Origin: a virus
Lineage: Duplodnaviria > Heunggongvirae > Uroviricota > Caudoviricetes
Strand: one strand, 5' to 3'
Length of the DNA: 64,000 nt
Virus record (IMG/VR): IMGVR_UViG_2861084961_000001
Shown here piece by piece: positions 34,627-36,808 of the stretch. The notes below the pieces were generated by a model that searched no databases, was not told where the DNA came from, and saw only the letters and a list, made by a program, of their open reading frames with translations. Made by a program: the position numbers and the translations under genes. The first letter of the stretch is position 1. The number at the start of each line of letters is the position of its first letter.

Positions 34627-35220
34627 ATGATTGCAGCCGAAAAAATCAAACAGCGAAAGCGCGACAACTCTCTTCGTGACCTCTGGAGAACACCTGATTG
34701 GCTGTTTTCTGCCATTCAACGTTATCTTGGGGTGACATTTGATGTTGACGTTGCCTGCAACAAGGACAATGCAAAGCTGCCTAATTTCATAGGCGTTGAG
34801 CGTGATGCTTTGAAATCTGAATGGGGACAGCCAGGTACAATTGCCTTCCTCAATCCACCCTACTCCAAAATCTCCCCCTGGATTGATGCTGCTATACGTG
34901 AGCAGGCTCGCGGAGTTACAACAGTGATGCTAATTCCTCAATCCCTCGATACAAAGTGGTATGAGCGTGCAACAGAGTATGCGAATGAGACGATTATTCT
35001 GTCTGGTGGCCGCGTAGCGTTTGTCGAGCCTGACGTCAATTTGGGTCAGGTAGAAGTAAACATCAACCCCGGTGGCAGTATGCTCGTTGTTTTTCGAGGA
35101 TTCTGTCAGGACGCTGGGCACTCTATAAGCAAGATCCCTTTGGACGTAATGAAAAGTCTGGGAGGGTATGATCCTGCGAATGTGGTCAGGAAAAAAAGAC
35201 CATCAAAGAAGGCTGCTTAG
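34627..35220 (+). CDS. DNA methyltransferase, NPPY motif (likely N6-adenine, phage Dam-like)
   Basis: FLNPPYSKISPW; start ATG 34627 (track begins at an alternative start 34615). Confidence 0.55.
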   Translation: MIAAEKIKQRKRDNSLRDLWRTPDWLFSAIQRYLGVTFDVDVACNKDNAKLPNFIGVERDALKSEWGQPGTIAFLNPPYSKISPWIDAAIREQARGVTTVMLIPQSLDTKWYERATEYANETIILSGGRVAFVEPDVNLGQVEVNINPGGSMLVVFRGFCQDAGHSISKIPLDVMKSLGGYDPANVVRKKRPSKKAA

Positions 35221-35405
35221 TTTGTTCTGGCGAGTGTAATTAACCTGCTTCTGTATATAAATAACTACATATTAATTATTAATATACGGAAGCAGGCTGT
35301 TTTGTATCAGAGACTCCCAGACCTGAACACCACTACAGAATCCACTAGAACCCCTTCTCAGACGCTTTAAAATCGATTTTATGAACCACTTTAAGGAAAA
35401 CTAAC

Positions 35406-35636
35406 ATGTCATACCCGACCAATGTTGTTGCGCTCGTAGAGAGCGATTTTCTGGCTAAGGCTCGTGAAATGATGAAAGATCGCGAGCAGGCTTTCAACTT
35501 GTACGAATGGGCAATTAAGTGCTTGCATCTTGGGGAGCATCGCGAACTTGTTGAACAGCTTTTAGGTGAGTTGATCAACGAGGTGTTTGCCTTGAATGTT
35601 CAACTACATGGTCGAGAAAATAACCAATCGAAATGA
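35406..35636 (+). CDS. hypothetical protein (76 aa)
   Basis: ORF track. Confidence 0.35.
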   Translation: MSYPTNVVALVESDFLAKAREMMKDREQAFNLYEWAIKCLHLGEHRELVEQLLGELINEVFALNVQLHGRENNQSK

Positions 35637-36217
35637 TAGATAAGTACAAACTATTCATAAGATGGATTGTAAGTGCTAAGATCTGATAGTTTCCAGTCGT
35701 AGACTGGAGACTCGACCTGATGGGTGGGGGTAAGCGTCACTGGCGTCAGGTTTAAAAAAGCTCACTACCAGCGTAGAACCGGTGCCGTTTAGGTGTCGGG
35801 GAAGGGGGAACCAAAGTGAGCGGAGACAAGGGTCACTTTATGATTGTCGAGTCTGGGATGTTTCGAGAGGTTGAATCCAGTACTCCCCTTCATAAAGTGT
35901 GGGAAGATCTCGGTTCTGGGGTGCTGTCATCCATAACTTCCCAAGTCTAAGCTGGCAGTAGACTTAGACCATAGCTTTTCAGGTTATGAAACGACCAGGT
36001 TGGTGAGGAATTTTATACTCACCTCCCTGGGAGAGTATTACCTGAAAAGACAACCTCTCACTTCGTTCGAGGTGAACTTCACTCACTTCGTTCGTTCAGT
36101 TCAGGTTTATAAAAACCTGTACTGGGAAGTAATTTGTTTATTTTAATAATTATTACACGCACGCGTGTGCGCACGCGCGAGGAAAAAATCGGCGCGGCGC
36201 TTGATTCAGGAGTTTAT

Positions 36218-36808
36218 ATGACGTCGAAGACACCAGCCCGGTCGCAAGCAAAAACTCGCAAAAAAGACAAAAACAAAAATTCTCCCCGCACCAATCCCAC
36301 AACGCCTGTCGTAGAGTTCAATCCCCAGCTTAAAACCGTGAAAATCTTCAGTGATGGCTCTTGCCTTAAAAATCCGGGTGGCCCGGGCGGTTACGGTATA
36401 GTTCTCCAGTATCGTGGTGAGGAACGCGAGTTCTCAGATGGTTTTCATAGCACCACCAATAACCGCATGGAGATGATGGGGGCACTTATCGGGCTGGAGC
36501 GTTTGAAATATCCATGCAACGTTATTTTGCACTCTGATAGCCAGTATCTGAAAAACGGCATGACACAGTGGATGAAATGGTGGAAACGCAATGGATGGAT
36601 GACTTCTGACAAAAAACCGGTAAAGAATGTTGATCTGTGGAAGCGTCTGGATGAGGCCGCAAGTCGACATAATGTTCGCTGGAAGTGGGTTAAAGGTCAC
36701 GCCGGGCATCGTGAAAATGAAATATGTGATCGACTCGCGAAGATCGCAGCTTTTTCCGCAGCAGATATGCCTCACAAGAAAGATATTGGTTTTGTTTATA
36801 ACAAGTAG
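36218..36808 (+). CDS. rnhA: ribonuclease HI with about 45-aa basic N-terminal extension
   Basis: [91 protein letters not shown]; ATG 36218 inside track ORF 36134..36808. Confidence 0.85.

Follow-up and report, generated by a model that had tools for sequence, protein, structure and literature searches.

The 64,000-nucleotide (nt) stretch of the IMG/VR virus record IMGVR_UViG_2861084961_000001 (Caudoviricetes), called the window here, contains between a gene for a protein of 76 amino acids (aa) and the RNase HI gene (rnhA) a gap that is very probably occupied by an independent gene for a structured non-coding RNA. This RNA gene spans about 450 nt, from approximately position 35688 to 36134, and its product represents a new RNA family that has not yet been described. 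Judged from its sequence relationships, the window is an SSU5/pHCM2-type phage-plasmid, and the overall explanation that we favour, with some reserve, is that of a stand-alone structured RNA which acts in trans and forms a new family of such phage-plasmids in the Enterobacteriaceae. A preliminary description made from the letters of the window had reported at 35650-36130 a G-rich, structured region upstream of RNase HI, lacking open reading frames (ORFs) of 60 codons or more, and had proposed either a structured non-coding RNA or a long regulated leader. The gap indeed extends from the stop codon of the 76-aa ORF (35634-35636) to the ATG of rnhA (36218), the longest ORFs within it encoding 48 aa (36000-36146) and 44 aa (35816-35950), and the product of the downstream gene was confirmed as RNase HI (PF00075, E 1e-44). 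The first of the two proposals is supported by compensatory changes in at least ten helices, by the lack of a coding signal, by a conserved promoter and by a transcript; a long regulated leader of rnhA is disfavoured, because the RNA is retained where rnhA is deleted, displaced or replaced. Neither of the two observations that the preliminary description had named as refuting it was made, since a transcript exists and the homologous regions of relatives encode no protein.

Over the region 35400-36400 the window is a 100% match to the E. coli plasmid NZ_CP014490.1, and shows 96-98% identity to the Escherichia phages CMS-2020a, PhiR41_1 and Cyrano and 81-82.5% identity to Salmonella phage SSU5 and its Klebsiella relatives. 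The RNA element is better conserved than both flanking genes: its core is 94% identical to SSU5, compared with only 81-82.5% for the 1-kb region that includes these genes. Among the E. coli, Salmonella, Klebsiella, Enterobacter, Cronobacter and Buttiauxella types, identity over the element amounts to 88-94% (88-92% over 35711-36212 for the Salmonella, Klebsiella, Enterobacter and Cronobacter types). Aligned identity begins at about 35711 and ends sharply past CTGGGAAGTAA at about 36134, and the 3' half is nearly invariant, with 42-45 identical bases from about 36050 in all main lineages. The limits first proposed were slightly narrow, the functional unit extending from the promoter at about 35654 to about 36134-36145. 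The G-richness holds for the 5' half only (32% G at 35688-35900, as compared with 23% at 35901-36134 and 24% window-wide).

The element was found in 686 PLSDB plasmids (about 110 kb, 676 of them typed as non-mobilizable), 12 phage records, approximately 75 IMG/VR contigs and approximately 60 metagenome contigs. It is present in 232 of 5426 complete E. coli genomes (4%), usually as a single copy, as is also the case within the 64-kb window; 232 of the 234 matches in these genomes are plasmid-borne, and no annotation lies under the listed matches. A divergent RNA, about 68% identical to that of the window, occurs on the contigs L152-L155 and the metagenome loci L198, L207, L234 and L256; the divergent contigs were found via the members of the 76-aa ORF family that they encode (59-64% identical). 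The RNA of a further contig, L156, is 86% identical to that of the window. In the distant SSU5-like plasmids of Moellerella, Providencia and Pectobacterium, nhmmer and motif searches detected no homologue of the RNA, which suggests that within this phage-plasmid family it is limited to the Enterobacteriaceae branch.

Several candidate relatives were rejected. The Logan contig L157 (SRR8137545, 22.5 kb), seemingly an 80%-identical relative, was excluded because it was assembled from bisulfite-like, C-to-T converted reads; it corresponds to an E. coli-type locus in which essentially every C is read as T, giving spurious 'divergent' homologues of the RNA and of the 76-aa protein (P0026). When genome contigs were searched with sequence patterns, the first pattern (a 39-mer with a 12-N gap) gave zero matches, the genuine matches of the second were restricted to Buttiauxella, Kluyvera and gammaproteobacterial metagenome-assembled genomes, and the matches in Saccharibacteria, Acidobacteria, Thermoplasmata and Bacillota were short unrelated hairpins or 5' untranslated regions (UTRs), not homologues. 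Uncultured bacteria that are unrelated (Saccharibacteria, Bacillota and others) also contain the 20-mer AACCTCTCACTTCGTTCGAG, inside a longer shared string, AAGAACCTCTCACTTCGTTCGAGAACCTT, at loci including L158, L179, L193, L215, L222, L237, L238 and L241. These loci are not homologous to the whole RNA; the 20-mer there is apparently part of short repeated hairpin units, and the Acidobacteria copy lies in a 5' UTR by a ribosome-binding site.

That the gap is structured, as first described, is evident from its folding energy: the 582-nt stretch reaches -214.1 kcal/mol on the + strand, compared with -167.8 +/- 6.1 kcal/mol for dinucleotide shuffles (z -7.6), and the - strand fold has a z of -6.0. 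RNAalifold applied to 60 distinct main-lineage sequences gave 128 pairs, almost none of them broken and 15 with compensatory double changes. Covariation was scored on a set of 20 representatives that includes the 68%-identical lineage, with pairing partners slid by 1-3 columns and column shuffles as controls. For the resulting 132 pairs, 94.8% of the cells hold a standard pair (34-51% in the slid controls), and double changes were found in 40 pairs, compared with 26 +/- 2.4 after column shuffling (none of 500 shuffles reached 40) and 4-9 in the slid controls; the covariation score was 0.266, with at most 0.081 in the controls. Compensatory support was obtained for P0, P1, P2, P2a, P3 and its tip, P4, P4a, P5, P6a and P8 (Table 1), and is illustrated by one helix that passes through the series GUCUAAG/CUUAGAC, GCCUAAG/CUUAGGU, ACCUAAG/CUUAGGU and ACCGGGA/UCUCGGU. 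Three long-range closing helices predicted by RNAalifold (helices 1, 7 and 8) were left out of the model on account of their weak support (72-92% of cells paired). Nor is a pseudoknot claimed from the long-range candidates of 4-8 bp with 2-3 double changes (e.g. 35737-35744 with 35999-36006), since, with only two deep clades, chance alone would by our own estimate produce about two stacks of this kind.

The pair cells contain 299 G:U and 26 A:C combinations, and pairing drops to 84% when the alignment is read as the - strand, so the folded molecule is the + strand. One-strand wobbles, taken as G:T, would also fit a folded + strand of single-stranded DNA, and the element might accordingly be a DNA-level signal (an ssi/Frpo-like single-strand promoter or a primosome site) or a protein-binding array, for which its position next to a variable cargo region with defence and anti-defence genes could be cited. 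We give this explanation hardly any credence. The element is abundantly transcribed from a conserved promoter of the double-stranded type; SSU5-type elements are non-conjugative, as reflected by the 676 of 686 plasmids typed non-mobilizable, so that no single-stranded entry stage is expected; and the branched fold with its many helices is unlike the Frpo-type elements, which consist of a long single hairpin.

The individual parts of the RNA differ in how they vary. The sequence of P0 changes completely between lineages and the hairpin stays, with as many as four different pairs at a given position (CG/UA/AU/UG at columns 12:33 and CG/UA/UG/GC at columns 15:30 of alignment A2). In P1 (helix 3), 5 of 14 pairs show compensatory double changes and 97.9% of the cells are paired, CCUGA/UCAGG being replaced by GCAGA/UCUGC in the divergent lineage. 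Double changes affect 3 of 7 pairs in P2 (GCUCAC/GUGAGC to CCUGU/GCAGG) and 2 of 7 in P2a (helices 4 and 5), as well as 8 of 20 in P3 (helix 9). All cells are paired in P4 and P4a (helices 11 and 13; double changes in 3 of 7 and 1 of 5 pairs, respectively), and the P4 internal loop is invariant in the main lineages, with one change in the divergent lineage. P5 (helix 14) is likewise paired in all cells, 5 of its 10 pairs having double changes, and its closing pair forms the series GC, GU, AU. For P6 and P6a (helices 15 and 17), the base of P6 is nearly invariant in the main lineages, and P6a has double changes in 2 of 11 pairs with 98.6% of the cells paired.

The adjacent hairpins P7 and P8 (36054..36103) present the same 11-nt loop motif, which corresponds to what had been reported as a tandem repeat; the two copies of (C)TCACTTCGTTCG (36058-36068 and 36083-36093) lie 25 nt apart and are not in tandem, and Tandem Repeats Finder returned nothing for them. 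The two perfect stem-loops cited in the same report were retrieved, TCCAGTC-GTA-GACTGGA at 35692-35708 and AAGTCTAAG...CTTAGACTT at 35943-35967. The P7 and P8 loops read UCACUCCGUUC and UCACAUUCGUUC in the divergent lineage, and P8 (helix 19) has double changes in 4 of 8 pairs, UGAACU/AGUUCA becoming GAAACC/GGUUUC in that lineage. The terminal hairpin also covaries (UA/GC at columns 435:444 of A2). It overlaps P8 by 2-7 nt in the main lineages and not at all in the divergent lineage. The 3' end of the RNA is placed at a probable position of about 36134-36145 on the basis of the conservation boundary and the low read counts over rnhA.

Table 1. Parts of the RNA and adjoining features, in window coordinates.
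Feature	Position	Strand	Description
76-aa ORF	35406..35636	+	sole neighbour accompanying the RNA in every examined relative that carries it
Predicted sigma-70 promoter	35654..35682	+	-35 TTCATA (35654-35659), -10 TAAGAT (35677-35682), 17-nt spacer ending TGc
P0	35689..35711	+	5'-terminal hairpin GUUUCCAGUC-GUA-GACUGGAGAC; sequence varies between lineages, hairpin retained
P1	35714..35752	+	long hairpin GAUGGGUGGGGG...CACUGGCG with conserved G-rich interior
Linker	35753-35759	+	A-rich
P2	35760-35766 with 35815-35821	+	GCUCACU/AGUGAGC; encloses P2a and the G-rich GGGGAAGGGGGAACC
P2a	35779-35799	+	hairpin inside P2
P3	35834..35899	+	long interrupted hairpin; overlaps the spurious 44-aa ORF CYRAN_81
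P4	35900..35943	+	UGGGAAG/CUUCCCA; 11-nt internal loop AUCUCGGUUCU
P4a	35919-35932	+	inner hairpin inside P4
P5	35945..35969	+	hairpin GUCUAAGCUG-GCAG-UAGACUUAGAC
P6	35975..36049	+	CUUUUCAGGUUAUG / UAUUACCUGAAAAG; encloses P6a
P6a	35995-36030	+	within P6
P7	36054-36072	+	CCUCUC-ACUUCGUUC-GAGG; loop shows UCACUUCGUUC
P8	36073-36103	+	UGAACUUCAC-UCACUUCGUUC-GUUCAGUUCA; loop shows UCACUUCGUUC
Terminal hairpin	36097-36124	+	CAG-UU-CAGG...CCUG-UA-CUG, then GGGAAGUAA (to 36132) and U-rich tail; unit to 36145

The element does not evolve as a coding sequence. Its variable columns are distributed 91/87/84 over the codon phases, i.e. without periodicity, of the 95 indels relative to the window 86 have lengths that three does not divide, and in tblastn the six-frame peptides of the element matched the 68%-identical lineage equally poorly on both strands, no frame being preferred; no protein is encoded at this place in the relatives. 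The 44-aa ORF at 35816-35950, annotated in Cyrano as CYRAN_81, loses its frame in the Klebsiella and Salmonella lineages through indels of 1 and 2 nt. Its annotation is spurious, and the 44-aa 'moron' sits inside a non-coding RNA. The existence of this annotation, together with the fact that Hok-type mRNAs are about 400 nt long and highly structured, is what would speak for the messenger of a small protein or of a type I, hok-like toxin. Such a function is extremely unlikely, considering that the frame is broken by these indels, that codon periodicity is lacking, that no frame is conserved in the divergent lineage, that the 44-aa peptide is not hydrophobic, and that no antisense promoter overlaps the element.

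The predicted sigma-70 promoter in front of P0 belongs in the window to the extended -10 type, with TG at 35674-35675. Its layout, TT(T/C)Ann followed by a 16-17-nt spacer of variable sequence and TAnnAT, is present in 74 of 75 distinct upstream sequences; the spacer measures 17 nt in 69 of these, and TG precedes the -10 element in 59. A simple consensus promoter scan missed this site (8 of 12 positions matched). From its position, transcription would start at about 35688-35690, just 5' of P0. A palindrome, GGTAAGTACTTACC, directly follows the stop codon of the 76-aa ORF in most relatives and is degenerate in the window (GATAAGTACAAAC, 35637-35655); overlapping or abutting the -35 region, it could be the operator for a regulator of the RNA promoter.

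Transcription of the element was found in published strand-specific RNA sequencing (RNA-seq) data, one of the checks that had been suggested at the outset. These data, for E. coli LF82 carrying Cyrano, were reanalysed in PMC9928086, where CYRAN_81 is listed as a 'moron' at 12x the local background; over the stretch concerned, Cyrano and the window share 96.6% identity. CYRAN_81, located within the element, ranges from 6.8 to 10.35 in log2 fragments per kilobase per million (fpkm) over five conditions, with a normalised count of 117 in lysogeny broth (LB); the corresponding values are 3.1-5.8 and 9.5 for CYRAN_80 (the 76-aa ORF), 2.6-5.0 and 8.4 for CYRAN_82 (rnhA), and 6.4-10.35 and 96 for CYRAN_45 (the prophage repressor) (PMC9928086). 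According to these values, the RNA is 12-14x above both its neighbours in LB and up to about 40x above them in macrophage samples, and both its level, which is about that of the repressor, and its profile across conditions resemble those of the repressor.

The RNA could alternatively be a stable 3' UTR processed from the mRNA of the 76-aa ORF or from a long early operon, rather than a primary transcript. Consistent with this, the 76-aa ORF is always located immediately upstream, no strong terminator lies between ORF and RNA, and the expression is known from per-gene counts only. We nevertheless consider such an origin quite unlikely: the promoter between ORF and RNA is conserved in 74 of 75 variants, the RNA is 12x more abundant than the ORF in LB lysogens, and a covarying hairpin is situated exactly at the predicted start.

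The gene downstream of the RNA is variable, and the RNA is intact throughout. In Buttiauxella p1WJP83 the rnhA frame ends after five codons and convergent UvrD/AAA genes come next; in pEH4236 betT has been inserted within the GC tract in front of rnhA; and in the divergent lineage the RNA is followed by the gene of an unrelated DUF7557-like protein of 200 aa and then by a Tad2-like anti-Thoeris gene (E 2.5e-7). With rnhA truncated, displaced or replaced in these relatives, the constant association with a downstream gene that would mark an rnhA leader is absent, and the RNA, being intact without rnhA downstream, is unlikely to be an rnhA leader. A more general cis-acting leader or attenuator, whose 3' end would switch between termination and read-through for rnhA or other downstream cargo, is unlikely. 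It could account for the orientation of the RNA, which is that of rnhA and directly upstream of it, and for the 14-fold fall in reads from the element to rnhA in LB, as strong attenuation predicts; a separate rnhA promoter was not identified, and P8 and the terminal hairpin overlap and both covary. It is opposed by the variability of the downstream genes, by the overlap being missing in the divergent lineage, and by the size of the element, since about 450 nt, a dozen helices and a dedicated lysogeny promoter of repressor strength exceed the needs of known attenuators.

The neighbourhood of RNase HI brings to mind the RNA II primer of ColE1. Like RNA II, the RNA is a folded plasmid transcript of about 450-550 nt that includes a G-rich segment; AT-rich DNA comes after it, RNase HI is encoded nearby, and the gene of a small helical protein adjoins it. 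A G-rich transcript might accordingly form an R-loop at the AT-rich stretch 36135-36155 and be cut by RNase HI into a replication primer. The spacer following the structured transcript is always AT-rich, with a variable sequence, RNase HI adjoins it in most relatives, and the RNA is expressed in the plasmid state. We regard a primer origin as very unlikely all the same. Cumulative GC skew rises steadily through the site with no inflection; the plasmids type in PLSDB as IncFIB or other RepA-type/rep_cluster replicons; several relatives keep the RNA with rnhA absent or displaced; there is no unit resembling the antisense RNA I and no Rfam RNAI match, the sole promoter-like site on the - strand (35695-35666) pointing away from the element; the 76-aa protein upstream shows no similarity to Rop (no BLASTP alignment at E up to 100); and conservation stops before the AT-rich stretch instead of spanning the RNA-DNA junction.

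The RNA does not correspond to a known family. A search of the whole window with the 4227 covariance models of Rfam 15 gave no match at gathering score, with GOLLD, ROOL, OLE, raiA, C4, RNAI, Sok, RNase P, transfer-messenger RNA (tmRNA), 6S, CsrB, group I/II introns and riboswitches among the models covered. With permissive filters (E up to 10), the region 35200-36400 yielded only chance matches to microRNA (miRNA) and hepatitis C virus models, at 24 bits or less, as compared with gathering scores of 46-84; ARAGORN found no tRNA or tmRNA genes in the window. A literature search by name and topic terms, within the collection of papers covered, retrieved no description of this RNA, and no paper holding three of its invariant sequence strings.

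In general architecture the RNA resembles GOLLD (RF01998) and ROOL (RF03087), and also OLE and raiA: it is several hundred nt long, with many covarying helices and invariant internal loops. Like GOLLD and ROOL it is borne by temperate phages, has no fixed downstream gene and performs a function that is not evident from its context. It differs from these two in lacking an Rfam match, in occurring in the Enterobacteriaceae rather than in Lactobacillales, Firmicutes and lake metagenomes, in not being located beside tRNA genes (the window has none), and in being expressed in the lysogenic state. A second likeness is to the c4 RNA of P1 and P7 (Rfam C4, RF01695) and the CI RNA of P4, which are lysogeny RNAs of plasmid-prophages from the early-gene region. 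In c4, two target sites are matched by complementary sequences in the a' and b' loops, and the RNA described here similarly has two loops presenting one short sequence; unlike c4 and P4 CI, it is five to six times longer, has no match to Rfam C4 and finds no complementary target in the 64-kb window. With CsrB/RsmZ and 6S RNA it has in common that it is abundant, stable and structured, with a repeated motif in hairpin loops. It differs from CsrB/RsmZ in showing this motif twice rather than many GGA loops, and from 6S RNA in lacking a mimic of an open promoter; neither is matched in Rfam. GGA is not enriched in the RNA (9 copies, and 8.3 +/- 2.4 in shuffled sequences), most copies lying inside consensus stems.

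With the stand-alone RNA as the favoured explanation, the following sequence of events is proposed. The RNA would be transcribed rightward from its own sigma-70 promoter as long as the element resides in the cell as a plasmid prophage, would start with the protective 5' hairpin and would fold into about a dozen helices. Most transcripts would stop at the terminal hairpin and U-rich stretch ahead of the AT-rich spacer, little transcription reaching rnhA. The folded RNA may then act in trans by binding a protein or nucleic-acid partner, a mechanism that we advance tentatively; the likeliest contacts would lie in the nearly invariant 3' half, i.e. the twin UCACUUCGUUC loops and the P4 internal loop. 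By analogy with CsrB/RsmZ and 6S RNA, sequestration of a protein is considered the most likely mode of action.

Several observations weigh against this explanation. The compensatory changes come from few independent lineages, essentially one divergent clade and 4-5 others. The expression level is the count for one annotated ORF of 135 nt rather than a coverage profile, so that processing from a longer transcript would be compatible with it. At the 3' end, a terminator scan calls no canonical + strand intrinsic terminator, and of the U-rich tail after GGGAAGUAA, which the E. coli, Salmonella and Buttiauxella types possess, the Klebsiella type has a weak form; the overlap of P8 with the terminal hairpin could mean a switch between termination and read-through, i.e. 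regulation in cis. As to a nucleic-acid target, within the 64-kb window the complement GAACGAAGTGA (at most one mismatch) was found only as the element itself, and 8-mer and 11-mer complements of the RNA occur elsewhere in this window at chance level.

To our knowledge, few bacterial or phage RNA classes of more than 300 nt exist. Every one of these classes studied so far has revealed something unforeseen, with ribozymes, RNA cages and RNA-protein machines as examples. It is possible, though doubtful, that the RNA defines a new class of large structured RNAs with a biochemical role of its own, needed by the phage-plasmids for persistence or for control of the lytic switch; an RNA-protein machine, a cage like those of ROOL and GOLLD, a ribozyme, or a factor of RNA-based immunity or anti-defence would then be candidates. 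The novelty lies at the level of the RNA family, and the functional category may prove familiar. SSU5/pHCM2-type elements are widespread in clinical Enterobacteriaceae (E. coli, Klebsiella, Salmonella), and little is understood of how they control lysogeny, copy number and defence; an RNA present in lysogens at repressor level is therefore an obvious candidate regulator. For experimental work the RNA has the practical advantages of residing in phage-plasmids compatible with E. coli K-12 (PhiR41_1, Cyrano, SSU5), of being visible in public RNA-seq data, and of having a clear promoter and a well-supported fold.

The genes around the RNA are all encoded on the + strand, in the order thymidylate synthase, dihydrofolate reductase, DnaQ-like exonuclease, Dam methylase (PF05869) and the 76-aa ORF before the gap, and RNase HI, small ORFs and TciA/TciB-like genes after it. 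The 76-aa ORF family is an orphan family of 29 clusters with no Pfam match above threshold, and its product is predicted to form three helices (predicted local distance difference test score 80), with no fold match in the PDB. The Moellerella, Providencia and Pectobacterium relatives keep this ORF (about 45% identity), followed by other genes. The slot following the RNA and the 76-aa ORF is occupied at 3829-4913 of L152 by the DUF7557-like and Tad2-like genes and at 2091-3493 of L003 by the UvrD-helicase and AAA ATPase genes of Buttiauxella; in Moellerella, a type I restriction enzyme gene comes after the 76-aa ORF (L270, 4149-5186). Judging from these gene contents, the site following the RNA takes up variable cargo, which suggests a hotspot for defence and anti-defence genes anchored by the 3' end of the RNA gene, as occurs with tRNA genes.

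In RNase HI of the window, the first 39 aa or so (36218-36335) form an N-terminal extension of low complexity with many Lys, Thr and Pro residues, PF00075 covering residues 40-178. The RNase H starts of SSU5_090, about 165 nt too far upstream and inside the RNA, and of the TTG ORF at 36134 are probably wrong; the former adds a second annotation error to the CYRAN_81 'moron' placed inside a non-coding RNA. Between the RNA and rnhA, 36135-36203 comprises an AT-rich spacer, the alternating purine-pyrimidine tract CACGCACGCGTGTGCGCACGCGCG, which is Z-DNA-prone and hairpin-forming, and then GAGGAAAAAATCGGCGCGGCGC by the rnhA ribosome-binding site. The tract is the alternating GC tract of the preliminary description; it is present, at 36156-36179, beyond the end of the region as then delimited and outside the conserved element. 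Most relatives retain it, the divergent lineage does not, and in pEH4236 it forms the point at which betT was inserted; it could be an rnhA promoter/operator or a recombination hotspot.

On the other side of the 76-aa ORF, towards the Dam gene, a long near-perfect AT-rich hairpin, CCTGCTTCTGTATATAAATAA...TATATACGGAAGCAGG, followed by CTGTTTTG, occupies 35237-35300; it looks like a strong terminator, possibly bidirectional, and its Rfam matches are to miRNA families at chance level only. Two further transcripts stand out in the Cyrano data: CYRAN_43, a 'hypothetical protein' by the integrase and repressor genes (OV696614.1, 40268-40822, - strand), at 723x background and log2 fpkm 11.5-14.9, and CYRAN_40 (OV696614.1, 39144-39356) at 15x background (PMC9928086). 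Their regions are probably just outside the window, and both may be RNAs that were annotated wrongly, or else small genes with very high expression.

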